Positions 6,608-59,752 of a stretch of DNA of 64,000 nucleotides are shown piece after piece. The stretch comes from Minisyncoccales bacterium (GTDB taxonomy: Bacteria; Patescibacteriota; Minisyncoccia; Minisyncoccales; JAGMDC01), in NCBI GenBank assembly GCA_049642725.1, contig JBARPC010000004.1, forward strand, positions 27,052-91,051. The letters run 5' to 3'. The stretch's first letter is position 1. Each line of letters opens with the position of its first letter. A program made the translations under genes and the position numbers. Under the pieces are notes generated by a model, which worked only from the letters and a program-made list of their open reading frames with translations, was not told the origin of the DNA and did not search any database.

Positions 6608-6614
6608 AGGGGAT

Positions 6615-18310: not shown

Positions 18311-18334
18311 AATTAATTTTCAATGCCGAGTATT

Positions 18335-21516: not shown

Positions 21517-21598
21517 AGTTTGACTTTTTGGGCAATGTATGTTATGTTTTAATTAGCAGATAAAATGTAAATAAGGATAAAAATAAGAGGGATGAAAA

Positions 21599-22135
21599 AT
21601 GAAAGTTTTAATAACTGGAATTGGGATTACCGGGAAAAGCACTTTGCGAAGACTATTAAGCGACATCCTTTCTAAAACCGGAGTAGATGTAAAAGATTTT
21701 GAAACTGATTACGAAAAAATTCCGAAAATTTCGAATAACTTTTTTGAAAATACGATTTATCTCATAGAGGATGTTCATGGGACTTTGTCAAAAGAAGCAG
21801 TGTTGCCCTTAAATTCGTATGACCTGATTCTATATGTCCAGCCATTAGTGATTTCCCATATTCTCTTTTGGGTAAATAGAATGATTTCTTGGTTTAAGAC
21901 AGGACAGTATTCGTGGGATAAAAATTATGGTTGGTATGGCACTAACAGATCATATGACTTTCATAATATTGTTCCGATATTTAGAGCGTTTCTGCATGAT
22001 TTCAAAAATCGGAGAAAATGGATTTCCAGTGACTTGAAGAAAATTGCTCCATTCCCTTATATGGTAGTCCGTTCCCGGTGGACCTATAATGGAATCGAAT
22101 TCAGTATTCGAAAAAATATTAACCACCTTGAATGA
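21599..22135 (+). CDS. P-loop NTPase-like hypothetical protein
   Basis: N-terminal GIGITGKST Walker A-like motif. Confidence 0.4.
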   Translation: MKVLITGIGITGKSTLRRLLSDILSKTGVDVKDFETDYEKIPKISNNFFENTIYLIEDVHGTLSKEAVLPLNSYDLILYVQPLVISHILFWVNRMISWFKTGQYSWDKNYGWYGTNRSYDFHNIVPIFRAFLHDFKNRRKWISSDLKKIAPFPYMVVRSRWTYNGIEFSIRKNINHLE

Positions 22136-22147
22136 TTTTAAATGATT

Positions 22148-23479: not shown

Positions 23480-24844
23480 TCAAACAATAGCTATCTGTGG
23501 ATAACTTAATTTATAGATATCCCCTGCTCCCATTATAATGAGAATTTCTTTGTCTCTTAAATTCTTTTTTAAATAAGCCGCTGTTTGCTTAATAGATGAA
23601 ATATATTTGACATTTCTTGTCATAGCAAAATTTGTCAAGTTGTTTTTTATTTCTTCAACTAATTTTTCTGAACTAACTTTGCTTTTAATTTTTTTCTCTT
23701 CCCTACCAGCCACATCATAGATGTCTGTAATAATTAACCTATCAATCCAATTTTTATCTATTGCTTGCTTAAAAACTTTAACAAAATCATTAAATAAATA
23801 ATATGTTCTTTGATATTGATGGGGCTGAAAAACACACCAAATTTTCTGTTTGGAAAACTTTTCCCTGCATGCTTTTAAGGTTACTTTTACTTCTGTTGGA
23901 TGATGAGCATAGTCCGAAATAATAAATAATAAATGATTATTGATAGTTGTTTTTTTTATTTCAAAACGGCGCCATGAACCTTTATATTCTGACAATACCT
24001 TATAACTAACCTTATCTGGAATTTTTAAAGTTCTAGCTATACTCAAAGCGGCTAAAGCATTATAAATATTGTGTTCCCCAGGCACCTTTAAAATTTTTTT
24101 TAGTTTCTCGGTATCCTTTTGTTTTATAGAAAAACTTCTTTTTTGTACTTGAATATGTAGTTTTGAAATATTCTTATCTTCTCTATTCGTAATTAGTATC
24201 CCATTTTTTGGTAAATGCGAAACAAACTTTTCAAAAGCTTTTAAGATATTCTTTAAGTTTTTATAATAATCCAAATGTTCTTTTTCAATATTGGTAATAA
24301 TAGCAATTTTAGGCCAATAATTCAAAAATGATTCTTCATATTCGCAGGCCTCAATAATTAAATATTTACTCTTGCCCATGCGAAAATTTGAATTCTTAAA
24401 TTCTTTAACTTTTGTTCCAACAATTACTGTTGGGTCCAATCCAGCTTTAATTAAAATCAAAGCAGTCATTGCTGTGGTTGTGCTTTTTCCGTGAGTGCCG
24501 GTTATGGCAATAGTAAAGTATTTTTTTGTTAATTCTCCCAAAGCTTCTGGATAAGATAAACATTTAATGCCCAATTTTTTCGCCTCTTTTAATTCTGGAT
24601 TATCTTCCTGAACTGCCGGGCTATAAATTACTTTTAAAAATTTATCTTTTTCTCTACCTATAATTTTTGTCAAATTTTTAGCATTATGGGCTCCAATAAA
24701 AATTTTTGGTCCCTGCTTTTTTAATTTTTCAGTGATTTCTGAAGAAACCAAATCAGAACCAGAAACTTGCTCGCCTATTTCTAAATAATATTGAGCTAAA
24801 GCAGAAATGCCTATTCCGCCGATACCGATGAAATGAATTTTCAT
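23480..24844 (-). CDS. murC: UDP-N-acetylmuramate--L-alanine ligase
   Basis: MKIHFIGIGGIGISALAQY N-terminal motif. Mur ligase P-loop GTHGKSTTT. Confidence 0.9.
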   Translation of the reverse strand: MKIHFIGIGGIGISALAQYYLEIGEQVSGSDLVSSEITEKLKKQGPKIFIGAHNAKNLTKIIGREKDKFLKVIYSPAVQEDNPELKEAKKLGIKCLSYPEALGELTKKYFTIAITGTHGKSTTTAMTALILIKAGLDPTVIVGTKVKEFKNSNFRMGKSKYLIIEACEYEESFLNYWPKIAIITNIEKEHLDYYKNLKNILKAFEKFVSHLPKNGILITNREDKNISKLHIQVQKRSFSIKQKDTEKLKKILKVPGEHNIYNALAALSIARTLKIPDKVSYKVLSEYKGSWRRFEIKKTTINNHLLFIISDYAHHPTEVKVTLKACREKFSKQKIWCVFQPHQYQRTYYLFNDFVKVFKQAIDKNWIDRLIITDIYDVAGREEKKIKSKVSSEKLVEEIKNNLTNFAMTRNVKYISSIKQTAAYLKKNLRDKEILIIMGAGDIYKLSYPQIAIV

Positions 24845-25437
24845 AATTTTACGCTTTCTAAAATCGCATACTCCGCTCCCCCACGTTTTAATCTGCTTTC
24901 CATTATTTCAATTGAATTTACTGGAAAGTCTAAAGAAATTTCTTCGTCTATTTCTGGTGTTTCTTCTGGTTCTATTCTTCTCCATTCCCAAACTCTAATT
25001 CTGCCCAAGGTAATATGAGGTGAAAAAACCCTATTTTCTGAAGTAAAATTAATCCCTGAATCAATTAAGGACTTTTCTAAGTCGTTTTTCAAATCAGTTA
25101 ATTCTTTTATTCTTTCTCCTGCTACCCAAACCATTCTTGGAGGTATTTTTTTAGGGGGGCCATAGCAAATTCTATTCAAATTTATAGAAAAGGACTGATG
25201 TCGTACAGCAATTTCTTTAACAGTTTTATTAATTTCTAAAATCTCTTGATTATTCAGATTACCAAGAAAAATTAAGGTAATATGAAGATTGTCTGATTTT
25301 ACCCATTTAATAGGTAAATTCGGCCATTTATCCTGATAACTTAAAAGTTCTCTTTTTATATTTTCAGGCAGATTTATAGCAATAAAAATCCTTTTCATCA
25401 TTAGTTTTAATGTATCAGAATCTTGACTTTGTTTCAA
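24841..25437 (-). CDS. thpR: RNA 2',3'-cyclic phosphodiesterase / 2'-5' RNA ligase (2H phosphoesterase)
   Basis: Two H-x-T-x motifs (HITLIFLG and HITLGRI). Confidence 0.85.
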   Translation of the reverse strand: MKQSQDSDTLKLMMKRIFIAINLPENIKRELLSYQDKWPNLPIKWVKSDNLHITLIFLGNLNNQEILEINKTVKEIAVRHQSFSINLNRICYGPPKKIPPRMVWVAGERIKELTDLKNDLEKSLIDSGINFTSENRVFSPHITLGRIRVWEWRRIEPEETPEIDEEISLDFPVNSIEIMESRLKRGGAEYAILESVKL

Positions 25438-25451
25438 GGTTTTAGTATGAT
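25423..25451 (+). promoter_or_regulatory. Sigma70-like promoter candidate (TTGACT-N17-TATGAT) upstream of the TFB-like gene
   Basis: Hexamers and spacing read directly from the sequence. Overlaps the divergent thpR start codon. Confidence 0.4.
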
Positions 25452-25497
25452 GAGAAAAGAGTTTTGTTATTTAAAAATAGAAAAATTGGTGATAAAA

Positions 25498-26556
25498 ATG
25501 AGCGTAGAAGCTAAAGAAAGATTGAGAGATAATAACGCATCTATTGTCCAGAATAATTATTATAATATAGGCGATGATACAGACATAGAAGGTCCAAATA
25601 GAATAAGAAAATGCCCTGAGTGCAGTTCTAAATGTTTGGTAAAGGATTACAAAAAAGCAGAGATTTTTTGCGCTGATTGCGGTATGGTAATAGCAGAAAA
25701 TATCATAGACCTCGGTCCCGAATGGCGCGCTTTTGACCCTGAACAGACATTAAAAAAGACAAGAGTTGGAGCTCCGATGACTTATAGAATACACGATAAA
25801 GGATTGGGTACTGTTATAAACTGGGGTTCGCCGAGTAAAGAGCAATACAAGTTAAAGAAATTGCATAAGCTGACATATATTACTAAAACAACCGAAAAGA
25901 GCTTTATTTTCGCTCTTTCAGAGATAGACCGTATGGCATGCGCGCTTAAACTACATGTGAATATCATAGAAAGAGCATCTATGTTATACCGAAAGGCGAT
26001 GAAGAAACATTTGATACGCGGAAGAAGCATAGAAGCTTTGACTACCGCTCTCTTATACATTGTCTGCAGACAATACGGAGTGCCGCGAACACTGGACGAA
26101 ATTACAGAATTTTCAAGAGTTAGAAAGAAAGAAATAAGACGAGCGTATTTCTTTCTCTTGCGGGAGCTTGATTTAAAGGTTTCGCCTGCTTCTCCTGTTG
26201 ACTTCGTGCCTCGTTTCTGCTCCTTGCTTAATTTAGGTGGTGATATAAGAGCAAAAGCAATAGAGATAATAAAGAAGGCGGCGGAAACGGAATTGACCAA
26301 TGGGCGAGGGCCGATAGGGATAGCAGCAGCGGCTATTTACATTGCTGCGATTTTAAGCGGTGAGCATCAAAGCCAAAGCGAAATAGCAAAAGTATGCGGC
26401 ACAACACCAGCAACGATAAGAACCAGATATAAAGAAATGACAGTATTGTTAGAAGAGGATACGCTTCCCTTTCTCTGTTCCGATGGACGCGTGTGCAGAG
26501 TACTAAAGGAGAATTCCGAACAAAAAAATATTCTGGACAAAAAACAAAAAATATAG
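25498..26556 (+). CDS. tfb: Transcription initiation factor IIB (TFB/TFIIB) homolog: N-terminal zinc ribbon plus two cyclin-fold repeats
   Basis: CPECSSKCLV...CADCG zinc ribbon. ENIIDLGPEWRAFD B-reader/linker. FALSEIDRMACALKL...IRGRSIEALTTALLYIVCR (cyclin 1) and GRGPIGIAAAAIYIAAIL...IRTRYKEM (cyclin 2) align closely with archaeal TFB. GC and codon usage are visibly shifted from the neighbours. Confidence 0.85.
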   Translation: MSVEAKERLRDNNASIVQNNYYNIGDDTDIEGPNRIRKCPECSSKCLVKDYKKAEIFCADCGMVIAENIIDLGPEWRAFDPEQTLKKTRVGAPMTYRIHDKGLGTVINWGSPSKEQYKLKKLHKLTYITKTTEKSFIFALSEIDRMACALKLHVNIIERASMLYRKAMKKHLIRGRSIEALTTALLYIVCRQYGVPRTLDEITEFSRVRKKEIRRAYFFLLRELDLKVSPASPVDFVPRFCSLLNLGGDIRAKAIEIIKKAAETELTNGRGPIGIAAAAIYIAAILSGEHQSQSEIAKVCGTTPATIRTRYKEMTVLLEEDTLPFLCSDGRVCRVLKENSEQKNILDKKQKI

Positions 26557-26607: not shown

Positions 26608-27507
26608 GTGAAAGAAGCAATATTATACAAAAAACTTAAAAATAAAGAGGCAGAGCAATTCAACAGGGTGAAATGCCAAAATTGCGCTCATTATTGTGTT
26701 ATTAAGCCAGGCCAGCGAGGAATTTGCGGAGTAAGAGAAAATATCGGCGGTAAATTATATGCTCTCAATTATAACAAAGCAATTGCTCTAAATATTGACC
26801 CGATTGAAAAGAAACCATTATATCGCTTCCTGCCCGGCACACAGTCATTATCTGTAGCTACCGTCGGATGTAATTTTAGATGCGCAAATTGCCAAAATTA
26901 TGATATTTCTCAAATTCCACAGCTCATTGGAAAAATTGAAGGAGAAAACTTGCCTCCAAAAGAAATTGTCAAAATTGCTAAAAAAAATAATCTGCCTTCT
27001 ATCTCTTATACATACACCGAACCAGCTATTTTTTCAGAATATGCTTTAGATACAATGAAATTAGCCAAAAAGCAAGGAATAAAAAATGTCTGGGTCAGTA
27101 ATGGTTTTTGGTCAAAAGAATTATTTGATTTGATTTCACCTTATTTAGACGCAGCTAATATTGATTTAAAAAGTTTTTCTGATGAGTTTTACAGAAAATA
27201 CTGCGGCGGCCGACTTGAGCCTGTTTTAGACACTTTAAAAAGATTAAAAAAGAAAAAAATCTGGATTGAAGTTACAACTTTGATTATTCCTACTTTAAAT
27301 GATAATGAAAAAAATCTAAAAAATATTGCTGATTTTATTAAAAAAGAATTAGGAGCTGGAATACCTTGGCATATCAGCCGATTTTCAGGAGCAATTTCTT
27401 GGAAACTTCAACACTTGCCAGATACTCCGATTGAAACTCTTAAAAAGGCAGAACAAATCGGCAAAAAATCTGGTTTAAAATATATTTATCTCGGTAATAT
27501 TCTATGA
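26608..27507 (+). CDS. Radical SAM enzyme, AmmeMemoRadiSam-system type (AmrS-like)
   Basis: CNFRCANCQNY CX3CX2C radical SAM motif and an N-terminal extra Cys cluster CQNCAHYC. Gene context with AMMECR1 and the LigB/Memo-like gene. Confidence 0.8.
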   Translation: MKEAILYKKLKNKEAEQFNRVKCQNCAHYCVIKPGQRGICGVRENIGGKLYALNYNKAIALNIDPIEKKPLYRFLPGTQSLSVATVGCNFRCANCQNYDISQIPQLIGKIEGENLPPKEIVKIAKKNNLPSISYTYTEPAIFSEYALDTMKLAKKQGIKNVWVSNGFWSKELFDLISPYLDAANIDLKSFSDEFYRKYCGGRLEPVLDTLKRLKKKKIWIEVTTLIIPTLNDNEKNLKNIADFIKKELGAGIPWHISRFSGAISWKLQHLPDTPIETLKKAEQIGKKSGLKYIYLGNIL

Positions 27508-28115
27508 TTTCTTTTGCTTGTTTTTCTCCTCATCCTCCGCTGCTTTTGCCTGAAGTTGGTTCTCCAGAGGATAGAGAAAAAGTTAAAAAAACAATTGAAA
27601 ATTTGAAGTTTTTAGGAAAGAAACTAAAGGCAACTAATCCTGATACTATTATTATTTCCTCTCCTCACCCGGACTGGGGTTTTGATGTTCCTCTTTATTT
27701 TTTAAATCCTAAACAACGTATTCCAAGCAGACAATTATTTATTCCTGACAAAACCCCTGATTTTTATTATGAAAGAGGAAAACAATTTTATAATAAATTA
27801 GAAAAAGATAAAAAGTATGCTTTAATCGCTTCTGGTGATATGTCTCATTGCCTTAAAGAAAATGGTCCTTATGCTTTTCATCCTGACGGGCCGAAATTTG
27901 ACAAAGCCCTGATTGAATACCTAAAGAAAAAAGATATTAAAAGCTTTTTTAAATTAGACGAATATTTTCCAAATGCCGGTGAGTGCGGTTTGCGTTCATT
28001 CTCTTTTATTTTAGGAATTTTAGACGCCTCAAGCATAGATTGGCAGCCAGAAATCCTGTCTTACGAATCCCCTTTCGGCGTCGGCTACCTTGTTGTAAAT
28101 TTCAAATTACGATAA
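27504..28115 (+). CDS. LigB/Memo-superfamily (class III extradiol dioxygenase-like) protein
   Basis: Starts at the amrS stop (4-nt overlap). Size and His/Asp-containing motifs are consistent with the LigB/Memo fold. Assignment is partly by context. Confidence 0.55.
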   Translation: MISFACFSPHPPLLLPEVGSPEDREKVKKTIENLKFLGKKLKATNPDTIIISSPHPDWGFDVPLYFLNPKQRIPSRQLFIPDKTPDFYYERGKQFYNKLEKDKKYALIASGDMSHCLKENGPYAFHPDGPKFDKALIEYLKKKDIKSFFKLDEYFPNAGECGLRSFSFILGILDASSIDWQPEILSYESPFGVGYLVVNFKLR

Positions 28116-28121
28116 TTTCGC

Positions 28122-28150
28122 TTGACATTGGCCATAAAATTTGCTATTTT
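28122..28150 (+). promoter_or_regulatory. Promoter-like TTGACA-N17-TATTTT preceding a candidate ncRNA
   Basis: Read in the intergenic region after 28115. Confidence 0.3.
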
Positions 28151-28156
28151 GATAGT

Positions 28157-28370
28157 ACTCCGACAGTTTAGTAGTGAAAAATATAATGTAGATGCCATAC
28201 ACTACTCAAATAACAGAAAACCAATTTATGATTTCAGTTCGGAGCATACCCGGATAGCGAAACATCTATACCAGAATAAAGGAGAATAAAGGTTCAAATA
28301 ACCTTTACCTTAAATGAGAAGCAAGAGCCAGGAGGTCTTGCACAAAGACAAGGGGCCTTACCCCTTTTCT
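28157..28370 (+). ncRNA. Candidate small RNA (about 210 nt) bounded by a promoter-like site and a hairpin/T-run terminator (AGGGGccttaCCCCTTTTCT)
   Basis: No ORF with SD. Terminator hairpin at 28351-28370. Identity unknown. Confidence 0.3.
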
Positions 28371-28403
28371 CCGGGTATACAGTAAATTTAAAATTGAATA
28401 AAA

Positions 28404-28476
28404 GAGTGCGTAGCTTAGTGGCAAAGCCGCCGAGTGAAATCGGAGGAGACCGCCGGTTCGAATCCGGCCGTACCCA
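28404..28476 (+). tRNA. tRNA-like element: canonical D-arm and T-arm (GGTTCGAATCC) but an A2-C71 mismatch and a non-canonical anticodon arm (4-bp stem with 6-nt loop GTGAAA); possible pseudo-tRNA or atypical tRNA
   Basis: Folded by hand: acceptor GAGTGCG/CGTACCC, U8, D-arm GCTT-AGTGGCA-AAGC, T-arm GCCGG-TTCGAAT-CCGGC. Confidence 0.45.
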
Positions 28477-28587
28477 TTTAGAGGAAAATCATTAAATCTC
28501 CCTCTTTTTTATTTGCTCAAATCATTGTAGAAGAATTTTTGAATAAAAAAAGCAGACATGATAATTTTGTCTGCTATATTCTATATA

Positions 28588-29412
28588 CTATTCGTACCCA
28601 TTTAAGACGTCTTTCTTTATAAGATTTCGGGATTCCTGGTTAGTTAACAACTCCATCGTTTCTAAGCGGGCTAGAACATAACCTATCCAACGGCCTGCTT
28701 TCCCCGAAGTATTATTCATCTTTTTGATTTCTTCTGACATCCATAGTAGATGAGAGGGTAAATCAGTGATTCCTTGCCTTGGTTTTGCTTTTGGAAAGTT
28801 CTTTTTTATGATGTTTGTAATTGCTTCTATAGTGTTAGGATAGTATTTTATTTCGTTCTTTTCTGCTGCTAATTTTGCTTGTAAAAATCGGTTGGACTGA
28901 TAAAAACTCTCTACTGTTCCAGAATCCCACCATCCTTTAATCTCTGGCTCTCTTATAAGGTTAGACCTGTGAAAAGGAACTTTTCCCGGAGACAGGATGA
29001 CACTCAAAGGATGCATTCCTTTTTCTTGTCTGATACGAATTAACTTTTTGCCCTGAAAACATAGTCCCATTCTAATCAGCACTCGGCGAATAGCAATATC
29101 CTGGATGTGTGTTCGCGGTGTTTCTTGTTTTAAGTAATCAAATCCTGACTCAATATTTGATGGTTCGTCATCATAGACATTTACTGCCTCGGTAGTAAGC
29201 TGTTCCAGAATGTCTGGATTGTCTTGCAAAAATTTATAGTAGGCATCCTCATATAAAGTACAAACGCCGAGAAAACCAACGAATGTCTCACCGACTTCCC
29301 ATACTAAACGCCAATTTTCTTTACCGTATTCTTCATTCCATTCTTTGTGTCTTCTCTCACGATACTTTCCTATATACCCAGGTCGTCCAATCTTCACCCA
29401 TTTTTCTTTCAT
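28588..29412 (-). CDS. Hypothetical protein (274 aa), GC-shifted and foreign-looking
   Basis: Long ORF with higher GC and different third-position usage than its neighbours. Adjacent to the tRNA-like element. No family recognised. Confidence 0.5.
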   Translation of the reverse strand: MKEKWVKIGRPGYIGKYRERRHKEWNEEYGKENWRLVWEVGETFVGFLGVCTLYEDAYYKFLQDNPDILEQLTTEAVNVYDDEPSNIESGFDYLKQETPRTHIQDIAIRRVLIRMGLCFQGKKLIRIRQEKGMHPLSVILSPGKVPFHRSNLIREPEIKGWWDSGTVESFYQSNRFLQAKLAAEKNEIKYYPNTIEAITNIIKKNFPKAKPRQGITDLPSHLLWMSEEIKKMNNTSGKAGRWIGYVLARLETMELLTNQESRNLIKKDVLNGYE

Positions 29413-29573
29413 TTTTTCCTATCACCTATTTGTTTTACATTCTCTTATTAAATTTGGAAGGTTACTAATAATATAACTTATCACAGGACAGAACTCTTTG
29501 TCAAATTTTTAGACATCAAAATGGGGTTTTTGACCCTCTTTTTTATTTGACTGAATCGTTGTAAAATAAGTTT

Positions 29574-30140
29574 ATGGACATATATATTTCAATAGCAAAA
29601 AAAGCAGTTGAAATTTATATCAATCAAGGAGAAATTATAAAACCGCCAAAGGATCTGCCTAAAGAATTTTTAAATGAAAAAGCTGGTGTTTTTGTTAATA
29701 TTGAAAACCAGGGCAAATTACGGGGATGTATCGGCACTTATTTACCAACAAAAGAAAATATTGCCCGGGAAATTATTCATAACGCTATTGCTGCGGCTAC
29801 TGAAGATTATCGCTTCTCCCCTATTCAGGAAGAAGAACTTCCCGAGCTTTCTTATACTGTATATGTTTTAGATAAACCAGAACAAATAAAGAGCATAGAT
29901 GAATTAGATCCGAAAAAATACGGCATCCTTGTAAAATCCCAGTCCTTCTCTCCTGGCTCTGATGTTATTTTTGAACCTGCGCCAAGAGCTAATTCTAAAT
30001 CAGGATTGCTTCTGCCTGATTTAGAAGGAATAAATACCGTTGAAAAGCAAATCTCTGTTGCCTGCCAAAAAGGAGGCATAAATCCAGATCTTGAAAAAAT
30101 AATTATTTATAGATTTACAGTAGAAAAATTTGAGCAATAG
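29574..30140 (+). CDS. AMMECR1-domain protein (AmrA-like)
   Basis: AGVFVNIENQGKLRGCIGTY and IHNAIAAATEDYRFSP AMMECR1 signature. Confidence 0.8.
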   Translation: MDIYISIAKKAVEIYINQGEIIKPPKDLPKEFLNEKAGVFVNIENQGKLRGCIGTYLPTKENIAREIIHNAIAAATEDYRFSPIQEEELPELSYTVYVLDKPEQIKSIDELDPKKYGILVKSQSFSPGSDVIFEPAPRANSKSGLLLPDLEGINTVEKQISVACQKGGINPDLEKIIIYRFTVEKFEQ

Positions 30141-30182: not shown

Positions 30183-30226
30183 GCACGACTTTGTTGCTCT
30201 TCGCTTCGCTCAGAGACAAAATCGGC

Positions 30227-30895
30227 ATGGCTAATGAGAAAATCGCTAAAATATTATATGAGATAGAAGAATTGTTGAAAATAAAAGGGGTATCTTTTAA
30301 ACCGCAGGCTTACCATAAAGCTGCTTTGGCTTTGGAAAATTTAGAGGAAGATATCTTTGATATTTATAAGAAAAGAGGCGTCAAGGGTTTGAAGGAAATT
30401 TCCGGGATAGGCAAAAGTATTGCCGATAAAATTGAAGAATATCTGAAAAAAGGCAGGATTAAATATTATGAGAAATTAAAAGAAGAAACCGCTGTCCGTC
30501 AGATTATTACCCATTACTTTCAAACCAAAGGACTTAGCTTGCGCGAGCTCAAACAAAATGCTAAGAAAAGAAAGATTATTTATTCCCGGTTTACCAGGCC
30601 GGCAAAACAGCTTTTGGACTTAGCCGGTTCAATGGAAAAAGCAAAAAAAGCTATTACAACGGTTGCTGAATGGGCAAAATCCAGAAATCTGGATTATGCT
30701 ATTGAAACAGTGTTTAAAAAATGGCTGGAATTAGACCGGTTAAAGCCAAAAGAGATTGTTAAAAAGCCATTTTATAGAGGCGACCCAATGGTCTGGTCAA
30801 AATCAAAAAGAAAATGGTATGTTATTGACAAAGACGGCCAATGGCTGGAATTTGCCGACAAGGAATTAAAAATTGAGTGGAAAATCGTAAAATAA
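30227..30895 (+). CDS. PolX (DNA polymerase beta-like) N-terminal HhH/8-kDa-domain protein lacking a polymerase core
   Basis: IAKILYEIEELLKIKGVSFKPQAYHKAALALENL...ISGIGKSIADKIEEYLKKGRI matches the PolX N-terminal lyase/HhH domain. No palm or thumb domain. Start chosen at MANEK. Confidence 0.6.
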   Translation: MANEKIAKILYEIEELLKIKGVSFKPQAYHKAALALENLEEDIFDIYKKRGVKGLKEISGIGKSIADKIEEYLKKGRIKYYEKLKEETAVRQIITHYFQTKGLSLRELKQNAKKRKIIYSRFTRPAKQLLDLAGSMEKAKKAITTVAEWAKSRNLDYAIETVFKKWLELDRLKPKEIVKKPFYRGDPMVWSKSKRKWYVIDKDGQWLEFADKELKIEWKIVK

Positions 30896-30902
30896 TCTAT
30901 CT

Positions 30903-31463
30903 ATGCTTTCTTTTAATGAATTAGAAAAAGGAATAACAATTATTATAGACAAGCAGCCGTATGAAATTTTAGAGGCCTCCCGCCTATTCAAAGGAAGAGG
31001 TCATTCTGTTTTACAGGTAAAAATAAAAAATCTTATCACTGGAGCTACTATTCCTAAAACATTTCATCCCTCAGATAGTTTTGAAGAAGCAGAGATTAAA
31101 AAATTTAAAGCAAAATTTTTGTATTTTCATCGTAGCCAATTTTTCTTTTGTGAGGAAAAAAATCCCTCCAAGAGATTTAGCTTGGAAGAAAAACAGATTG
31201 CCCAGCAATCTAAATTTCTTAAAGCAAACCAAATTGTACAAGGCATTATTTTTGATAATAAAGTTATTAATATTTTTCTTCCCATAAAAATAAATTTAAA
31301 AGTTATTGAGGCGCCACCCGGAGTCCAGGGCAACCGTTCCCAACCAGGAACAAAAACAGTTGTTCTGGAAACAAAAGCAAAAATAGCCTGTCCTTTATTT
31401 ATAAAACAAGGAGATACAATTGAAATCAATACAGAAACAAGCGAATACGTCCGCAGAATTTAA
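30903..31463 (+). CDS. efp: Elongation factor P
   Basis: N-terminal KOW-like domain ...KGRGHSVLQVKIKNLITGA... matches the EF-P pattern (KPGKG loop equivalent). 186 aa. Confidence 0.9.
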   Translation: MLSFNELEKGITIIIDKQPYEILEASRLFKGRGHSVLQVKIKNLITGATIPKTFHPSDSFEEAEIKKFKAKFLYFHRSQFFFCEEKNPSKRFSLEEKQIAQQSKFLKANQIVQGIIFDNKVINIFLPIKINLKVIEAPPGVQGNRSQPGTKTVVLETKAKIACPLFIKQGDTIEINTETSEYVRRI

Positions 31464-38811: not shown

Positions 38812-39357
38812 TTAATCAAAAATTCTACTTTGGCGATAAAATTTTATTTTCAATTTAGCCAAATCAGAATTTTCTGAAATTTCAAAAATTTTGGCAAACT
38901 CTTTTTCCGTATCAGGAAGAATACTCCTGTTAAGATTCTCTTCTTCCGACAGCCAATAATTGGCTTTATAGGAAGCAACAAATTTTCTCTCTTCTCCATC
39001 AATAAAATAAACGGTTGAAAGATTAATTGAATCTTTTCTTTTATTTAAAACTTTCACTTTTACTTTCACAAACTTTCCCTCTGTTTTCAAATCCTTTATT
39101 CTTTTTAATTCCTCTTCATTAACAGGCGGAGACACTATTTCTGCCGCTTTTAAGATATTTCCTATTTCCTTAACTTCTAAAATCTCGCAACTAACGTTTC
39201 TTGACTCAACTGATTTTTCAGGCAGACAATTAATTTGAATAGTGTGCAGCTTTTCCATTGAAACAAAAAAGCAAAAAATTCCTCCAAAAACCAAAAACAC
39301 TCCTATTATTCCACCCAAAATCCCGATTAGAATAATTCTTTTTTCTTGATTTTCCAT
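38812..39357 (-). CDS. Membrane-anchored hypothetical protein with an extracytoplasmic domain
   Basis: N-terminal TM IILIGILGGIIGVFLVFGGIFCFFV followed by a soluble domain. Confidence 0.5.
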   Translation of the reverse strand: MENQEKRIILIGILGGIIGVFLVFGGIFCFFVSMEKLHTIQINCLPEKSVESRNVSCEILEVKEIGNILKAAEIVSPPVNEEELKRIKDLKTEGKFVKVKVKVLNKRKDSINLSTVYFIDGEERKFVASYKANYWLSEEENLNRSILPDTEKEFAKIFEISENSDLAKLKIKFYRQSRIFD

Positions 39358-52789: not shown

Positions 52790-53836
52790 TTATTCTGGTT
52801 TTTCTAATTGCAACGGCTGAACCTTTTTTTCTTTATTAGTTATTTTTGCAACATCTTTATCAATCTTGCCAAACTCCTTATACGCCTGATTGTAAGTATT
52901 TACTGTTGTGCTAATATTATTCCCCAACCTCTGCAGAAAACTGTCGTAATTTAGCAAATGCTTTTGCAAACTCTCAACCTGCTTTCTAATTTGTTTTGCT
53001 GATTCTTCTATTTGCAGGGCGCGCAAACCCTGAAGCACGGTTTGTAAATAAGCATAAAAAGAAGTCGGAGAAACAATAATAACATGTTTTTCTTTAAAGG
53101 CATATTCAATTAAGTCGTAAGTAGTTATCTTTATAGCACCAATTTGATTAATTAGCAAGTCATAATAAATGCCTTCAGAAGGAATAAACATAAAAGCAAA
53201 GTCCATTGTCCCCTCATCAGGCCTGATGTATTTGGCTGTTTCCTCAATTCTCGTTTTCAAATCCTGTTTAAATATTTTTTCTAATTTCTCTCTTCTCTCC
53301 GGCTCTTTTTCTTCTAAAATTTTATTATAGTTTTCTAAAGAAAATTTTGAATCAATTGGGACTATTTTATCTTTAATAAAAATTACTGCGTCAACAATGT
53401 CTCCGTCTTTGAATTGATACTGAAGCTTATACTGGTTTGGTTGAAAAACATTTTTTAATAATGTCTCTAAAAAATACTCGCCCAAAATTCCTCTTTGTTT
53501 TGGATTTGCTAAAACATCAGTTAATTTACCAAGCTGAGATTTTACATCTAAAACATTTTTGTGATCACTATGGATTTTCTCCAACTGGCTCGTGACATCT
53601 CTAACAATCTTACTGCTTTCATTAAGTTGCTTTTGTAAAGATTCTATATTTTTTTCACTTGTTTTCTCTATCTTTTCTCTGATTTCTTTTAATTCCTGTT
53701 GAAACAAATTAAAAATCGGTTCATCTTCTTTATTCTTTTTTAACGAGCTAAGCTCCTTTCTAACCAAAAAAACCAAGAGTACCACTCCCCCGCTAACAAT
53801 CAGAAATATTATTAAAATAAAAACAAAATCAGCCAT
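52790..53836 (-). CDS. rmuC: DNA recombination protein RmuC
   Basis: N-terminal TM, long coiled coil, C-terminal RmuC nuclease-like domain with FMFIPSEGIYYD. Confidence 0.8.
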   Translation of the reverse strand: MADFVFILIIFLIVSGGVVLLVFLVRKELSSLKKNKEDEPIFNLFQQELKEIREKIEKTSEKNIESLQKQLNESSKIVRDVTSQLEKIHSDHKNVLDVKSQLGKLTDVLANPKQRGILGEYFLETLLKNVFQPNQYKLQYQFKDGDIVDAVIFIKDKIVPIDSKFSLENYNKILEEKEPERREKLEKIFKQDLKTRIEETAKYIRPDEGTMDFAFMFIPSEGIYYDLLINQIGAIKITTYDLIEYAFKEKHVIIVSPTSFYAYLQTVLQGLRALQIEESAKQIRKQVESLQKHLLNYDSFLQRLGNNISTTVNTYNQAYKEFGKIDKDVAKITNKEKKVQPLQLEKPE

Positions 53837-53880: not shown

Positions 53881-54093
53881 TTATTTTTTCCAGTATTTTT
53901 TGATTCTTTCTATCGCTCTTTTTTCTTCTAAATCTAAGAGGAATATCTTTTTTAAGGTTTCAAATAACTTTAATCTTTCTTCTTCATCTAATTGAGGCAC
54001 TCTCTCAAGCAGGGCTGATTTTCTTTCTGGGTCAATCTTGAGTTTCTTAATAAGGCTTCTTAATGCTGGATTGGTAATAAATGGATTAGACAT
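53881..54093 (-). CDS. Hypothetical protein (70 aa)
   Basis: ORF co-oriented with its flanks. Confidence 0.4.
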   Translation of the reverse strand: MSNPFITNPALRSLIKKLKIDPERKSALLERVPQLDEEERLKLFETLKKIFLLDLEEKRAIERIKKYWKK

Positions 54094-54100
54094 ATTTTTT

Positions 54101-56002
54101 CTATTTATTTTCTTCTTCTTTCTTAGAAGCGAAAATAAACTTCACTAATTCTATAAAATAATCCAAAAGTCCTTTTTCTGATTTTCTGGTTTCACCCCAA
54201 AGTACACCTGCCTTTTCTTGATTTTCAATGAAGTTTCGTATTTCCTCTTCAGATGTTTCTATACCTTGGTTTTTGCGAAAATAGTTTTCAATAATCCCTG
54301 GGTCTTCTTCTATATCACCGCTTATTTTATCAAGTCCTCCTTTTCCTTCCATAATTTCAGACATAAATCTATGAGTGTCTTCCATCATTCCCTTTACTTC
54401 ATATTCTTTTTTTAGTTTTTCTAATTCCTCAGCAGTTTTTTTCTGTTTTTTGGCTCCTTCTTTCAAATCTTCATCAATCAATTTTCCTTTAACCCTATCA
54501 AATAAACCCTGTATTCCTTTTTCTGCTTTCTCCGGTGAGCCAGCTATCGCTTTGATTTCCTCATTGATTATTTTCTTTACTTCCTCATCACGAATTCTCT
54601 TTTTCTCATCCCATTCTCTCCCTAATTCATCTTCTGATTTATCATTAACTTCTTTGTTATAATCTTCCATTCTTTCTTTAAGAAATTCCGAGAATTCTTT
54701 ATACTTCACTGTATCTTTTTTTCCATCGGTCTTTCTAAGTTCAACTAATGTATCTAAACGTTTTAATCTGATTTCTTCAACATCATATCCCGCATTCATT
54801 AAAGCTAATATCTTTTCATCATCCACGGTCATCATTTTCTTTGGATATGCTTCTTTTAATTTCTTTTTAATCTCATCCATCTTTTCTCCAAATTTCTTGT
54901 CAAATTTTTCTTTATAAAAATCGCTCATATCTTCCCATCTTTTAAAAGTCATTTCCTCGCCTAATAGTAATTTAGATTTTTTACAAAATTCCTCGCCTTG
55001 TTTTCTTTCGTCTAAGAGTTTCTCAATATAAGAATCTTTATTTTCTAAAAGTCCTGCCTTATTTTCAGCAAAATCTTCTAAATTCATTCCTTCTAATCCC
55101 TTGATTTTCGCAGTTAATTCTTTTATATCTTCAAATAAATTTCCTAATTCTTTCAATTTTTCATTTATTTCTATTTCTGGTCTTCCACTTTCTTCCATTC
55201 TCGTTAATTCTCCTTTCATTTTCTCAATTCTTTTATCTAATGTATTTAAAACCAAAATCTGCCCCTCAATTGAACAATCCTTTCTTTTATCAAAATCCGC
55301 GCTTATAACATATATGTTTTCTATATCTATCTTGTCTTCTTTATACTTCTTTTTTGTCCATAACTCTTCAAAGGCGCCATTTCTCATTGCGATTTCAGCT
55401 TTCTTGTCTCTTAAAAGTTCAAGATCCGAAGATATTCCTTCTTTTTTCTCAAGTTGTCTTCTATGTTCGTCAAACCATTTTACGGCAAATTCAATTCTTC
55501 TTTCGTCTTTCTCTTTTAGGAGCACATCTTTAATATTCTTTTCTCTGTCCGGATCCAATTTAAATTTTTCAGTAAATTCATTAAGCAACCGAGTTTCGTC
55601 CTCTCGCGCTGTTCCCTCATAAAAACGAGGAATTCTTTCAGGTTTTCTTTCTCTTTTTTCTTCTTTTTCTCCTACCTCTTTTTTTTCATCTTTTACTTTT
55701 CTTTCTTCCGTTTCTTTTCTTCTCTCTTCCAGTATTTTTTCAATCTCTTCCTTTGACATATCAGAAGTTATTAAGGTCTCATCCTCTTTATTGGCTATTT
55801 TTTCTCCTTTTTCTTTTTCTCCCATATTTTTGTTATTATTATTTTCATCTTTTCGTTCCGACCTTTTTAGTTCTTCTTTTGTTTTATCTGTAAAATTATC
55901 ATCTTCCTTTTCTTCAACCGAAACATCCCAGCCCGTCTTTTTGCCCGCCTCTTTTATATCTTTAAGTATTTCTTTTCCTAATTTTCTTTCTCCTTTACTC
56001 AT
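54101..56002 (-). CDS. Large E/K-rich coiled-coil hypothetical protein (633 aa, no TM)
   Basis: Extreme Glu/Lys content and heptad-like repeats. Immediately downstream of the T4CP-like ATPase gene. Confidence 0.5.
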   Translation of the reverse strand: MSKGERKLGKEILKDIKEAGKKTGWDVSVEEKEDDNFTDKTKEELKRSERKDENNNNKNMGEKEKGEKIANKEDETLITSDMSKEEIEKILEERRKETEERKVKDEKKEVGEKEEKRERKPERIPRFYEGTAREDETRLLNEFTEKFKLDPDREKNIKDVLLKEKDERRIEFAVKWFDEHRRQLEKKEGISSDLELLRDKKAEIAMRNGAFEELWTKKKYKEDKIDIENIYVISADFDKRKDCSIEGQILVLNTLDKRIEKMKGELTRMEESGRPEIEINEKLKELGNLFEDIKELTAKIKGLEGMNLEDFAENKAGLLENKDSYIEKLLDERKQGEEFCKKSKLLLGEEMTFKRWEDMSDFYKEKFDKKFGEKMDEIKKKLKEAYPKKMMTVDDEKILALMNAGYDVEEIRLKRLDTLVELRKTDGKKDTVKYKEFSEFLKERMEDYNKEVNDKSEDELGREWDEKKRIRDEEVKKIINEEIKAIAGSPEKAEKGIQGLFDRVKGKLIDEDLKEGAKKQKKTAEELEKLKKEYEVKGMMEDTHRFMSEIMEGKGGLDKISGDIEEDPGIIENYFRKNQGIETSEEEIRNFIENQEKAGVLWGETRKSEKGLLDYFIELVKFIFASKKEEENK

Positions 56003-56030
56003 ATTTTTCTATTTTTTATTTTAATTTACT

Positions 56031-58463
56031 TTAATAAAGTTTTGACCTTTCCATAATTTCTCTTTCCACCAGAGCCCTGGGTCTGCCATATTTCAGTTTG
56101 GAGATTTTTTTGACTGGTTCTATAATTTTTGGATTGCCCTCAATCGGTTTAATTGTTTTCACCTTGAATGGACTGGAAAGCTTGTTGTCTATCATCATCT
56201 TAACAATAAATTGGAAATTATCAAGATTAACCAAATCATAACGGGAGAATTCCGGCTCAAACTGCTTTTCTAAAAATTCAGCGTCAGTGGCGCCAATTCT
56301 GAAAGCAGAAATTGTCCCCACGTTTCCGATCACAGCGTCTCTAATCTGTTCTGTTAATTGAGGGATAAACTGGTGAGCTAAAATTAAATCCAAACGGTAT
56401 TTTCTTGCCTCTGATAAAATAGTAGCAATAGTATCAGTAGTAAAATTCTGAAATTCATCAATATACAAATAAAAATCTTTTCTCTGTTCTTCTGGCAATC
56501 TTCCTCTTTTCATCGCTGCTAATTGCATTTTAGACACTAAAATCAAACCTAATAAAGAACTGTTCATTTCACCTGTTTGTCCTTTTGACAAATTGGCTAA
56601 AAATATTTTTCCTTCATCCATAATCTTTGCCAGATCAAACCCTGAATGCGACTGGCCAATAATATTTCTCATCATCTCATTTTCAACAAACCTGCCAACT
56701 TTTGAAACAACATAGCCAAGCATGTCTGAACGGGTTTCACCGGTTGTCTGCGCCCATTCTTTCAACCAAAACTGCCTTACTAAAGGATCTCTTACTTTTT
56801 CTAACCGTTCTTTCATAAAATCATCGTCTGTAAAAATTCTTGGGATTTCCACTAATGTCCCAGGATCATCCTTATCCGCCATTAAAGCAAGCATGGCGTT
56901 CCTCATATAATGCTCAAACATAGGGCCAATAATTTCTGGAGGGAAAAGTTTGGAAAAGATGGCAATCATTTCAGAAGCGGCAAAATCTTTTTGTTCAGGC
57001 GTATCCCATTCCAGCATATTTAATCCGCAAGGCCTTTCTAGGTCAAACGGTTCAAACAAAACTACATCTTCAGCCCTTTCTTTTGGAATATTGGCCAAGA
57101 TATCTTCAATTAAATCACCGTGAGGGTCAATAACCCCGACTCCTCGTCCTTGTTCAATATCCTGACGGATCATTTCTCTCAATAAAGATGATTTACCAGT
57201 TCCGGTTTGACCTATAATATAACAATGGCGGCGTCTGTCGTTTTCCGTTGCAAAATAAACTTCTTTTTCTTCACTGCGAAAAACTGCCTTGCCTATTAAA
57301 TTAAGTCCAGTAGAAGGCAATTCAGTTGGCGGAGCCACTTCTTTTGTTTTTACCCATTTAATCTGGGGACTTTCAATATGAGACAAAGGAAAATGATAAA
57401 TACTGGTTAGTTCTTCTAAATTTAAAATACTTCTCTGGTTTTTATTAAAAACACGAAAGCTGAAATTGTAAATAAATTGCTTTAGCTTATTTTTTTTAAC
57501 TTTTATTGAATTCAATTCATTAAAATTATTATAAAACTGGGAAAAACCGCTTTCTAAATGACTTAAAATTTCTTCTGCCCTTGACTGCTCTTGGGCAACT
57601 CCTAATAAGCGAATATTCACATCAAAAACCGGTTTTTGGATTTTGGTTTTAATTGCTTCAAAACTGGGCTCTTCAAACGGCTTTTCTTTTTCCTTTTCCA
57701 AGAAACTTTTTTTCTCATCTTCTTTTTTAGAAGACATTGCTTCAAGAAATGAGTCAAAAAACTTCATTATTCCGCTTTTTTCTGTTTCAGCAATAGCTGT
57801 TAAGGCGGTTTTTCCTTCTCTAATTTTAGAAAGAACTTTTTCTCCCTTGTATTTCAAATCTTTTGAACAAGGCCTAAGAATTATTTGGACTGCTGCTCCT
57901 TCATCAGGATTAATCTTGCTTAAAGTATTGGTAATACTTGCCAAAGGATCTTTTTCCAGGTTTTTATAAGTGTTAATGGGAAAATAAATCGCTTTTTTTA
58001 ATTTTAAATAAGAACCAGCTATTTTTCCGCTTGGTTCAAAGACAGTGTAATCTTCGGGGACTTTTTCTACTTGAGCGCCCGGATATACCCCCTGAATATT
58101 TTTCTCTAATCCGGTTTCCAAGTTGGTTGGCACCGCAACATAAAATGAAATATCACTGCCGCCCACTTGCGAAGCAATTTCTAAAGCAATTCTTGGTGAA
58201 CCCTGAAAAAATCTTTTAATAAAATTCGGCTTCTCTAAATACAAAAAATTAGAGTATATTTGCTCCATTATTCCAATCACTGATTTTATATCCTGTTTCT
58301 CTTTTTCTTCTTTCTTTTCATACTTCGGCAACCTCACCAAAAACAAAGCCATATCCAATGACTTTGTTAATTGCTTGATTTTTCTTTTCTTGGCGGCCAA
58401 AAACCAACCTATTCCAAAAAGAATTAAAATAATTATACCTAAAATTATCAATAAAAAATCCAT
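56031..58463 (-). CDS. Membrane-anchored AAA-like ATPase of the VirD4/TraG/TrwB (type IV coupling protein, DUF87-like) class
   Basis: N-terminal TM. Walker A GQTGTGKSS, Walker B LYIDEFQNF. TraG/TraD-like C-terminal region. Family call from motifs only. Confidence 0.55.
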   Translation of the reverse strand: MDFLLIILGIIILILFGIGWFLAAKKRKIKQLTKSLDMALFLVRLPKYEKKEEKEKQDIKSVIGIMEQIYSNFLYLEKPNFIKRFFQGSPRIALEIASQVGGSDISFYVAVPTNLETGLEKNIQGVYPGAQVEKVPEDYTVFEPSGKIAGSYLKLKKAIYFPINTYKNLEKDPLASITNTLSKINPDEGAAVQIILRPCSKDLKYKGEKVLSKIREGKTALTAIAETEKSGIMKFFDSFLEAMSSKKEDEKKSFLEKEKEKPFEEPSFEAIKTKIQKPVFDVNIRLLGVAQEQSRAEEILSHLESGFSQFYNNFNELNSIKVKKNKLKQFIYNFSFRVFNKNQRSILNLEELTSIYHFPLSHIESPQIKWVKTKEVAPPTELPSTGLNLIGKAVFRSEEKEVYFATENDRRRHCYIIGQTGTGKSSLLREMIRQDIEQGRGVGVIDPHGDLIEDILANIPKERAEDVVLFEPFDLERPCGLNMLEWDTPEQKDFAASEMIAIFSKLFPPEIIGPMFEHYMRNAMLALMADKDDPGTLVEIPRIFTDDDFMKERLEKVRDPLVRQFWLKEWAQTTGETRSDMLGYVVSKVGRFVENEMMRNIIGQSHSGFDLAKIMDEGKIFLANLSKGQTGEMNSSLLGLILVSKMQLAAMKRGRLPEEQRKDFYLYIDEFQNFTTDTIATILSEARKYRLDLILAHQFIPQLTEQIRDAVIGNVGTISAFRIGATDAEFLEKQFEPEFSRYDLVNLDNFQFIVKMMIDNKLSSPFKVKTIKPIEGNPKIIEPVKKISKLKYGRPRALVEREIMERSKLY

Positions 58464-58466
58464 AAC

Positions 58467-58856
58467 TTATTTCTCTAAAAATTTCTTAAATAATCCCTTT
58501 TTTGCTAAAGTATCATGGAATAAATCCAGCAAATATGGGTCATCCATTTTTCTGGCTACTTCTACAGCGTAAGCCAAACCCTGGGATTGAGCCAAATCCA
58601 AAAGATGCTGGATTTTTCCCTTAACAGTTCCCTTTTTTATATCTTCGGCTTGCTTCCGGGCTTGGACTTTTGCTTGGGGAGATAATTTGACCTTTTCAAT
58701 CTCTTTTTCTATTTCCTTCTTTACTTCTTTTTCTTCCTCGGTTAATTCTTTCTTTTCTAAAATCTCTTCCCTCTTTTTTATGGTTTCTTTAGGAAAAATC
58801 TCTTCCCTATATTCCTTTCCCGGCTCTTTTTCAATTTTTTTATCAAATTCTTCCAT
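58467..58856 (-). CDS. Charged hypothetical protein (129 aa)
   Basis: ORF co-oriented and tightly spaced (3 nt) upstream of the ATPase gene. Confidence 0.4.
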   Translation of the reverse strand: MEEFDKKIEKEPGKEYREEIFPKETIKKREEILEKKELTEEEKEVKKEIEKEIEKVKLSPQAKVQARKQAEDIKKGTVKGKIQHLLDLAQSQGLAYAVEVARKMDDPYLLDLFHDTLAKKGLFKKFLEK

Positions 58857-58963
58857 ATCTTGATTCTATCATAATTTAACTAAAAATAAAGACCTATTTT
58901 CAATTTTTGGCTCACCCCGTAAAGCTTCGCCACGGGGCACGAATTTTTCCCGCATATTATACT

Positions 58964-58986
58964 ACTACGAGAACAGTTCTCGTAGT
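58964..58986. repeat. REP palindrome ACTACGAGAACAGTTCTCGTAGT (GTAG-type), 3' flank of the RAYT gene
   Basis: Perfect 11-bp arms. Preceded by a CCCCGT...ACGGGG hairpin plus T-run at 58906-58950. Confidence 0.75.
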
Positions 58987-58988
58987 GT

Positions 58989-59699
58989 TTAGTTTATTAA
59001 TATTTCTTTGAAATTAGAATCAGCCATTTGTTTTTTAAGCGAAATCCATTCTTTAACAAAATGACGGCTGTTATCTATACTGCCCATTAAGTTAGATAAT
59101 AACTCTCTGTTTGTTAATAAAGGATAATTCTTCTTGCCCAAATAATCAGGATAGCTTGACCATTTATAGTTTTCTAAAAATTTAATAACATCTTCTATAT
59201 TTTTGGTTTTTATCCCCTCTTCTTTCCATTTAGGAGCTATAATAGCTACAGGATTGGTATGAATGTAAACAAATAATGTTTTTAATTGCTCATCGTTTTT
59301 TACAATAACTGCCCTGAATCTCCCGTCAAAAACATGGCCCTTTCTTTCGTATTTCTTATTATAATACATTCCATATCCAGCTCCAATCTTTCTCATAAAC
59401 TTACTAATCCCTTGGCCTCTAACTTGTTTAATTAATAGATGAACATGATTTGGCATTAAACAAAAAGTCAAAATTTCCACCAACATTTTTCTTTCCTTCT
59501 TTATTCTACCACTACGAGAACTGTTCTCGTAGTGTTGACGATAAGACCAAATAGTGGGATTTTTGTCGTTAAATTCAAATAAATTATGAAGAGAACGAAA
59601 ATAATCCCTTTCGTCTCTAAAAAGCTTCATTCCTTCCACTGCCCTAATTACAATATGGTATATTTCTCCGTTTACTAATGGTGGTCTTTTAATTGGCAT
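58989..59699 (-). mobile_element. REP-associated tyrosine transposase (RAYT; IS200/IS605-family Y1 HuH transposase TnpA)
   Basis: HuH motif CLMPNHVHLLIKQ and catalytic Tyr motif YIHTNPV. Flanked on both sides by the 23-nt REP palindrome. Confidence 0.8.
59511..59533. repeat. REP palindrome ACTACGAGAACTGTTCTCGTAGT lying in-frame inside the RAYT CDS (encodes YENSSRS)
   Basis: Identical to the flanking REPs. Located in the N-terminal third of the transposase gene. Confidence 0.75.
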
Positions 59700-59727
59700 A
59701 TTATATTATATTTTATCTTACTTACGC

Positions 59728-59750
59728 ACTACGAGAACTGTTCTCGTAGT
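59728..59750. repeat. REP palindrome ACTACGAGAACTGTTCTCGTAGT, 5' flank of the RAYT gene
   Basis: Lies between the RAYT start (59699) and the stop of the adjacent CaCA gene (59753). Confidence 0.75.
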
Positions 59751-59752
59751 GT

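Follow-up and report, generated by a model that had tools for sequence, protein, structure and literature searches.

What is a type IV coupling protein (T4CP) doing among housekeeping genes, with no relaxase and no other part of a type IV secretion system (T4SS) beside it? The question is raised by a 64-kb stretch (hereafter, the window) of the genome of a Minisyncoccales bacterium (Patescibacteria, or candidate phyla radiation [CPR]), in which an 810-aa membrane-anchored ATPase of the DUF8128 subfamily is encoded next to a small charged protein of 129 aa (up129), a Glu/Lys-rich protein of 633 aa (EK633), and a basic helical protein of 70 aa (dn70). Across the related loci, the constant companion of this ATPase is the 129-aa protein and not the large E/K-rich one. 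With a probability of about 0.5, this chromosomal orphan T4CP works with a T4SS encoded elsewhere and has up129 as its adaptor or regulator.

According to the list of open reading frames (ORFs), six genes run co-directionally on the minus strand: up129 (58467..58856), the T4CP gene (56031..58463), EK633 (54101..56002), dn70 (53881..54093, directly after EK633), RmuC (52790-53836), and rplU, which encodes L21 (52477-52788). Pfam also supported the assignments of the T4CP, RmuC, and L21. The gaps between the first four genes are 3, 28, and 7 nt; RmuC starts 44 nt past the 70-aa gene, and rplU starts 1 nt past RmuC. The four tightly spaced minus-strand genes described in the original prediction, made from the letters of the window, are thus present, and the run extends to six. 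Since the gene order recurs in an assembly made independently from this organism (Logan SRR28062514, L088), the arrangement is not an assembly artefact. The GC content is low across the window (about 0.30-0.37), and that of the module is the same as that of its surroundings. Upstream of up129, the intergenic region (58857..58988, minus strand) was read as containing one REP-like palindrome and an AT-rich, promoter-like stretch (ttgaaa...tatgat/tagaat), which is a candidate promoter.

The 810-aa protein begins with a single transmembrane (TM) helix (residues 3-24; 58392..58457, minus strand, by hydropathy scan), with a KKRKIK patch right after it. The positive-inside rule predicts that everything beyond the anchor, including the DUF8128 and ATPase domains, faces the cytoplasm. 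Between the anchor and the ATPase domain lies the alpha/beta domain DUF8128 (Pfam PF26449; approximately residues 40-385; 57309..58346, minus strand), which is precomputed on every one of the 120 ATPase homologs listed. This region is common to the plasmid and phage homologs, whose matches begin at query residues 66-140. The P-loop NTPase domain covers approximately residues 390-780 (56124..57296, minus strand), and the alignment with TrwB takes in its P-loop and Walker B regions. Its Walker A motif, GQTGTGKSS, occupies residues 418-426 (57186-57212, minus strand), and its Walker B motif, LYIDEFQNF, residues 666-674 (56442-56468, minus strand). Anchor and motifs, all of them named in the original prediction, could be located at defined residues of the translation. 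In an alignment of 17 diverse homologs, GQTGTGKS (418-425) and the strand containing DEFQ (666-674) are invariant, and more than 5,800 close homologs of similar length (about 810 aa) are known from the protein database. Between the two Walker motifs lie eight helices (residues 489-616), modeled with a predicted local distance difference test score (pLDDT) of 60-85 in an AlphaFold2 (AF2) model that is poor as a whole. This model, built from 17 close homologs, has a mean pLDDT of 58 and was used for coarse Foldseek ranking only.

The assignment of this ATPase to the VirD4/TraG class, as first proposed, was upheld by the profile and structure comparisons of TrwB/VirD4 with HerA and FtsK, which favored the coupling-protein side. 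Two T4CP models of Pfam pass their cut-offs: TrwB_AAD_bind (42.4 bits versus 20.5, E value of 5.5e-11) and, on residues 395-706, T4SS-DNA_transf (33.2 bits versus 20.1, E value of 3.4e-8). DUF87, the HerA central domain, was also above its cut-off, at 7.2e-9 and over a stretch of 62 residues. The Pfam models FtsK_SpoIIIE (15.3 bits versus 24, covering the P-loop only) and HerA_C (14.7 bits versus 22) remained below threshold, the NCBIfam HerA model scored 20.7 against a cut-off of 970, and all NCBIfam equivalogs were far below their cut-offs, so that a classification as FtsK/SpoIIIE was not obtained. No VirB4 model was among the Pfam or NCBIfam matches, and none of the three partner proteins matched a nuclease or Sir2 family in Pfam or PADLOC, as a HerA partner would. 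Among solved structures, the nearest to the ATPase family profile was TrwB (4.7e-7), and the profile also matched a "DNA helicase" (9x1l; 2e-4) and DotL. Using the low-confidence model as query, Foldseek ranked TrwK/VirB4, Cag-beta, DotL, and TrwB above HerA (1e-6); the TrwK matches had the top E values but, with that model, a TM-score of only 0.27-0.30.

The most discriminating comparison was made with hhalign. The family profile aligned with two plasmid T4CPs over 672 and 651 columns, with probabilities of 99.8% and 100% and E values of 1.9e-28 and 3.3e-45, whereas the VirB4-like ATPases encoded in these two plasmid clusters reached probabilities of only 2.7% and 52.8%. Because the profile aligns with the plasmid T4CPs and poorly with their VirB4-like proteins, these comparisons showed that the predicted 810-aa protein belongs with the T4CPs of the monoderm/archaeal conjugation lineage and not with FtsK, HerA, or VirB4. 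The published placement of Patescibacteria T4SS beside the MPF-FATA class agrees with this lineage assignment.

The plasmid relatives are widespread, with tblastn matches to the ATPase on Bacillus, Streptomyces, Clostridium, haloarchaeal, and Sulfolobus plasmids, over approximately residues 70 to 800; 19 plasmid records cover at least 80% of the query. Homologs on a 27.5-kb Bacillus subtilis plasmid (NZ_CP154917) and on an Embleya plasmid sit inside conjugation gene sets that comprise a replication-relaxation protein, a VirB4-like ATPase, PrgI, NlpC/P60, and "conjugal transfer" proteins. After the N terminus, these two homologs (WP_345805471.1, annotated as "DUF87 domain-containing protein," on NZ_CP154917, and WP_331738717.1 of Embleya) have in common with the window ATPase a DUF8128-type domain followed by a VirD4-like ATPase domain, and their Walker motifs match, at approximately 22-29% identity. 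The differences lie in the surroundings. The plasmid T4CPs adjoin the replication-relaxation protein, the VirB4-like ATPase, PrgI, and a cell-wall hydrolase, whereas the window ATPase has none of these nearby. Furthermore, the ATPase gene of the window is located on a chromosome and evolves at the pace of a core gene, and upstream of it is encoded a small partner that the plasmid and phage loci lack.

The second group of full-length relatives comes from phages. The profile phrog_5156 matches residues 59-807 of the ATPase (E value of 5.2e-97), and tblastn matches to phages extend over approximately residues 90-803. These include the Bacillus phage G (gp156; JN638751), the SPO1-like phage SP8 (MW001214), and phage 0105phi7-2, whose protein is annotated as "DNA helicase or translocase" (OQ317942), all full length and at approximately 22% identity, with no up129-like neighbor. 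One phage homolog region has plasmid-partition genes nearby, and no T4SS genes are annotated in the two phage regions examined. Matches of the ATPase to terminase and FtsK-like PHROG profiles were set aside as generic P-loop similarity.

The canonical Gram-negative members of the clade, TrwB of R388, VirD4, and Cag-beta, are likewise membrane-anchored P-loop ATPases; the helical insertion that separates their Walker motifs may correspond to the helices modeled at residues 489-616 of the window ATPase. TrwB and Cag-beta are among the best sequence and fold matches in solved structures; the sequence likeness to TrwB is confined to the P-loop region, and the match at Walker B stays below threshold. 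The canonical T4CPs lack a DUF8128 domain, and their TM helices usually number two, against one in the window ATPase. They also work with a relaxosome. VirB4/TrwK proteins are of comparable size (about 800 aa) and have a two-part layout of N-domain and ATPase; they differ in their weak profile match and in the lack of any VirB4 match in Pfam or NCBIfam on the window ATPase.

A system to which this coupling protein would couple was not found around it. Scans of ORFs across the 64-kb window turned up no relaxase, VirB4, VirB6, or pilin family, and the lack of visible T4SS components noted in the original prediction holds for all the ORFs scanned. These are of a housekeeping type or otherwise unrelated to T4SS, and among their products are tRNA synthetases, Mur ligases, FtsW, MraY, an AddA-like helicase, ABC proteins, DnaB, RecR, DnaX, Fpg, and EF-P. 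The same picture was obtained from a comparison set of 82 related Patescibacteria loci (83 in some HMM counts), with ATPase identities of 60-92%: among the most frequent Pfam matches of 50 large flanking ORFs from these loci, there was no T4SS family, and two further ATPase contexts on long contigs were also of a housekeeping type. The exception is a closed Nealsonbacteria genome (CP179892.1, L087), where T4SS-like genes start 5.6 kb downstream of the T4CP. This set (18035-22454) encodes a T4SS_pilin-like protein of 410 aa, a protein of 825 aa without a family, a protein of 140 aa, and PrgI (VirB3-like).

Orphan T4CPs of Patescibacteria are already known from a report of 2025 (Quinonero-Coronel et al. 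2025; PMC12102498), which counts 5,713 VirD4-like T4CPs in 2,918 of 3,035 Patescibacteria genomes, with only 148 of the 5,713 near virB4 and with relaxases rare. VirB4 was found there in 2,417 genomes, which gives prevalences of 96% for T4CP and 80% for VirB4. In the same report, the proximity of a relaxase or VirB4 is treated as a contextual feature of T4CPs and not as a strict requirement, and the authors state that exaptation of the orphan T4CPs cannot be ruled out. Like the window ATPase, these proteins are VirD4-like, mostly far from virB4, and without a relaxase; the window ATPase almost certainly belongs to this set. Taken with the loci compared here, the T4CP of Patescibacteria is no longer linked to a relaxase or, in most cases, to VirB4, and housekeeping genes surround it.

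What does accompany the ATPase is the 129-aa protein. By tblastn, up129 was found in 77 of the 82 related loci, and in 75 of them an intact up129 ORF immediately precedes the ATPase gene, both on one strand, with a gap below 100 nt in 60 of those 75 and a 4-nt overlap in 9. Clustering of the neighboring ORFs, where up129 is cluster c1, gave the same linkage picture. The partner is specific to Patescibacteria, has a length of about 130 aa, and is in many cases translationally coupled to the ATPase. Its N-terminal part is variable and acidic/basic, and its C-terminal part is helical and conserved, with the consensus ...KI.HLLDLAQ..G..YAVEVA.KM.DPYLLDLFHD.LAK.GLFKKF and the invariant residues L88, G93, D111, H114, and D115. 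No Pfam, NCBIfam, or PHROG family was found for it. A profile search of 1.84 billion representatives returned 855 clusters at an E value of at most 1e-3; the best 150 of these 855 include no fusions and consist of proteins that stand alone, with lengths of about 64-190 aa and mostly of 120-150 aa. The AF2 model of up129 (pLDDT of 68) has a disordered stretch at residues 1-37 and six helices, with the conserved C-terminal helices at approximately 85, and Foldseek found no fold match for it in PDB or BFVD (best E values of 3.3 and 3.6).

Small soluble proteins that are likewise dedicated to a T4CP and encoded with it are CagZ with Cag-beta (PDB 8dol) and IcmS/IcmW/LvgA with DotL (PDB 6sz9). No sequence or fold similarity was detected between up129 and CagZ or IcmS/IcmW/LvgA, and the likeness is one of analogy. 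In five of the closest relatives (L002, at 6251-6973, and L003, L004, L006, and L011), an extra gene of approximately 214-245 aa, without a Pfam family, lies between up129 and the T4CP gene, which are 778-1382 nt apart there; the window lacks this gene. Another family, c2 (membrane-anchored proteins of approximately 200 aa with no Pfam match), stands directly before the up129-ATPase pair in 43 loci, often after a MacAB-like ABC transporter. It was considered as a third component and rejected, as its homolog in this genome (181 aa; 38812-39357, minus strand; E value of 2.1e-33) is 17 kb away. HMMs of up129, the 70-aa protein, the E/K-rich protein, and c2 found no match in the plasmid and phage loci that carry T4CP homologs.

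The E/K-rich protein on which the four-gene operon was originally centered has a different distribution. EK633 contains 18.6% Glu and 17.4% Lys, with a net charge of -21 and no TM-like window; the E/K-rich, TM-free character agrees with its first description, which also proposed a coiled coil. The stretch of residues 1-120 is extremely charged, and in other members of the family it is often missing or shows little conservation. In residues 120-633, scattered aromatic and hydrophobic residues are conserved, as is a hydrophobic helix close to the C terminus. A search of 5.8 billion proteins returned 6 homologs, with low-complexity candidates saturating the word index and the true spread uncertain. 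In an iterated local HMM search, EK633 was present in 11 of the 83 loci, always downstream of the T4CP; dn70 was found in 10 loci by HMM, to which tblastn adds one (L054). The two always co-occur and follow the ATPase directly, although in some loci one or two further charged proteins intervene, and on the ATPase tree the loci that carry them are scattered over clades other than Staskawiczbacteria. EK633 has no family in Pfam, NCBIfam, PADLOC, or PHROGs, dn70 has no Pfam or NCBIfam match above threshold, and the variable, charged downstream proteins of the other loci (240-760 aa) have no Pfam families.

Consequently, since up129 is present in approximately 75 of the 82 loci and EK633/dn70 in only 11 of the 83, the core unit consists of the small protein and the ATPase, and the EK633/dn70 pair is a lineage-restricted, fast-evolving add-on. 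The proposed check of whether the neighborhood is conserved in relatives thus had a divided outcome, in which the up129-ATPase link of the predicted operon stood and the association with the E/K-rich and 70-aa proteins proved to be restricted to a few loci.

In identities to the window protein across the more distant loci, the T4CP (61-68%; 62-66% in the EK633/dn70 comparison) falls beside L21 (55-73%) and DnaB (56-65%), with RmuC at 48-64% and RecR at 41-50%. The 129-aa partner (30-46%), the 70-aa protein (30-51%), and the E/K-rich protein (24-32%) are lower. Because its identities match the range of L21 and DnaB, the T4CP behaves like a core gene, about as conserved as these two.

How might an orphan coupling protein of this kind work? 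By homology, the ATPase would form a membrane-bound hexamer that uses ATP, recruits substrates, and hands them to a relaxase-less, pilus-bearing T4SS encoded elsewhere in the genome, of the type that most Patescibacteria encode. The substrates would more likely be proteins than relaxase-bound DNA. By analogy with CagZ-Cag-beta or IcmS/W-DotL, up129 may be an obligate adaptor or regulator of the ATPase, and EK633 with dn70 could be a substrate and its chaperone, or else a scaffold with an accessory role that the C-terminal hydrophobic helix tethers. The closed genome, in which the T4CP lies 5.6 kb from T4SS-like genes, counts in favor of such a link to a T4SS.

Several observations weigh against it, however. 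According to PMC12102498, the T4CP homolog of "Candidatus Southlakia epibionticum" was not essential for epibiotic growth and other T4SS genes were. The essential Saccharibacterial T4SS cluster described by Wang et al. 2023 is without recognizable coupling and relaxase proteins. The prevalences of 96% for T4CP and 80% for VirB4, again from the 2025 report, mean that some genomes may keep a T4CP without a T4SS. Conservation at the level of core genes is unusual for a conjugation-derived coupling protein, and full-length homologs of the ATPase exist in Bacillus phages without a T4SS. Finally, the structural model of the ATPase is of low confidence (pLDDT of 58), and both the function of the ATPase family and the contacts among the four proteins are predictions.

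Some of these points would fit better with a T4CP that has been exapted as a T4SS-independent translocase, in which the ATPase and up129 form a self-contained core machine, for example, a membrane pump for the uptake, export, or segregation of DNA or nucleoprotein. We regard this explanation as possible, although not probable. It would account for the conservation at the level of L21 and DnaB, for the excess of T4CP over VirB4 and the mere 148 of 5,713 copies near virB4 in PMC12102498, where exaptation is left open and non-essentiality is reported in Southlakia, and for the full-length homologs in SPO1-like phages and phage G, where there is no T4SS. The neighbors are also often DNA-metabolism genes (RmuC, RecR, DnaB, and AddA-like helicases), but RmuC, RecR, and DnaB change side and distance between clades, which looks like regional synteny and not an operon. 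Moreover, a single-pass anchor offers no obvious channel of its own, the incompleteness of metagenome-assembled genomes could account for part of the gap between 96% and 80%, and in the closed Nealsonbacteria genome the T4CP lies close to T4SS-like genes. A bolder form, which we consider rather doubtful, is that the T4CP and its 130-aa partner are a near-universal core machine of Patescibacteria without a VirB4-type channel, with the charged downstream proteins as lineage-specific cargo or scaffold. If this were true, a conjugation ATPase would have turned into a housekeeping translocase, for example, one moving DNA or nucleoprotein at the membrane of a nucleotide-scavenging organism.

The remaining explanations are far less probable than these. 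An anti-phage or anti-plasmid defence module, with a HerA/mad8-like ATPase and effector partners, would be consistent with the PADLOC match to mad8 (1.5e-18 over residues 410-751), with the weak HerA model matches, and with the fast evolution of the accessory proteins. The mad8 match covers the generic ATPase domain only, though, no other MADS component is present, and the three neighboring proteins have no significant PADLOC match (the 129-aa protein matches PtuA marginally, at 0.0034). The context is of a housekeeping type in all the loci examined, the slow, core-like evolution and near-universal occurrence of the ATPase, the latter as given in PMC12102498, are atypical of defence genes, and its best full-length relatives are conjugation T4CPs, all of which makes a defence role very unlikely. 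With this housekeeping context and a mad8 match of a generic kind, neither the defence-type nor the surface-appendage reading of the original prediction gained specific support. A decaying remnant of an integrated conjugative or mobile element is suggested by the RAYT gene and REP-like palindromes directly upstream and by the plasmid-borne relatives of the T4CP. It is hardly credible for an intact ORF with catalytic motifs invariant across 17 diverse homologs, with more than 5,800 homologs of about 810 aa, conserved housekeeping synteny, a RAYT nearby in only 3 of the 82 loci, and a GC content equal to that of its surroundings, and this explanation is already largely refuted. The chance that a housekeeping chromosome translocase of the FtsK/SpoIIIE or HerA type was misread as a T4CP is close to negligible: these proteins share the ASCE superfamily, DUF87 passes its cut-off on 62 residues, and HerA appears lower in the Foldseek list (1e-6), but FtsK_SpoIIIE, HerA_C, and NCBIfam HerA are all below their cut-offs and the full-length homology is to T4CPs, by which this reading is already refuted at the family level.

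Regarding the neighborhood, the gene directly upstream of the module encodes an IS200/RAYT-like Y1 transposase (58989-59699, minus strand; Pfam Y1_Tnp, 1.8e-11), and a sequence search found near-identical palindromes bracketing it (58963-58987 and 59726-59752; core ACTACGAGAAC.GTTCTCGTAGT). The adjacency of the module to a RAYT/REP locus was described correctly, and the link is incidental, as a RAYT lies near the T4CP in 3 of 82 loci. RmuC and L21 were also considered as members of the module and rejected, since they occur near the ATPase in approximately 20 loci but on either side, which was taken as regional synteny.

Other features of the window lie farther from the module. A 377-aa TFB-like protein (25423-26556, plus strand) carries a zinc ribbon (4e-17) and two cyclin repeats (1.5e-41) of the TFIIB families; its E values are 2.8e-54 against human TFIIB and about 2e-48 against archaeal TFB cores. 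A full-length TFB of the archaeal/eukaryotic type between bacterial LigT/MurC and EF-P genes is unexpected in a Patescibacteria contig and could be a horizontal transfer from an archaeon or a chimeric assembly. It shares a slightly GC-richer stretch (0.35-0.37) with a tRNA-like gene (28404-28476, plus strand), which ARAGORN reported as "tRNA-???" with a two-base anticodon and which scored 39.8 bits with the Rfam tRNA model versus 57-59 for the other two tRNAs. The same part of the window holds an AmmeMemoRadiSam-type set (26608-30140), composed of a radical SAM protein (26608-27507), a LigB/Memo-like protein (27504-28115), and AMMECR1 (29574-30140) and flanked by LigT (24841-25437) and HHH_8/EF-P (30191-31463). 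A related locus (L089) carries this set at the equivalent position but has no TFB-like gene there. Finally, a tyrosine recombinase/integrase (6615-7553, minus strand; Phage_integrase, 1.6e-38) stands among cell-wall and tRNA-synthetase genes and may be XerC/D-like and not derived from a mobile element.

A literature search for "DUF8128" found no papers. Full-text literature searches found no description of the placement of the ATPase in a DUF8128 subfamily of the coupling proteins of monoderm conjugative plasmids, of the constant 130-aa partner, of the core-like conservation, or of the E/K-rich/70-aa pair. The passages of PMC12102498 that were searched likewise describe neither the architecture with DUF8128 nor any of the last three of these features.

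Patescibacteria make up a large part of bacterial diversity, most of it uncultured. In the one species tested, epibiotic growth requires the T4SS. The present analysis places a widespread orphan ATPase of these organisms in the coupling-protein family of monoderm conjugation systems, and its constant small partner and the lineage-restricted charged pair are concrete candidates for interaction, secretion, and knockout work. These results frame a test of whether the coupling protein still serves the T4SS or took on another role.

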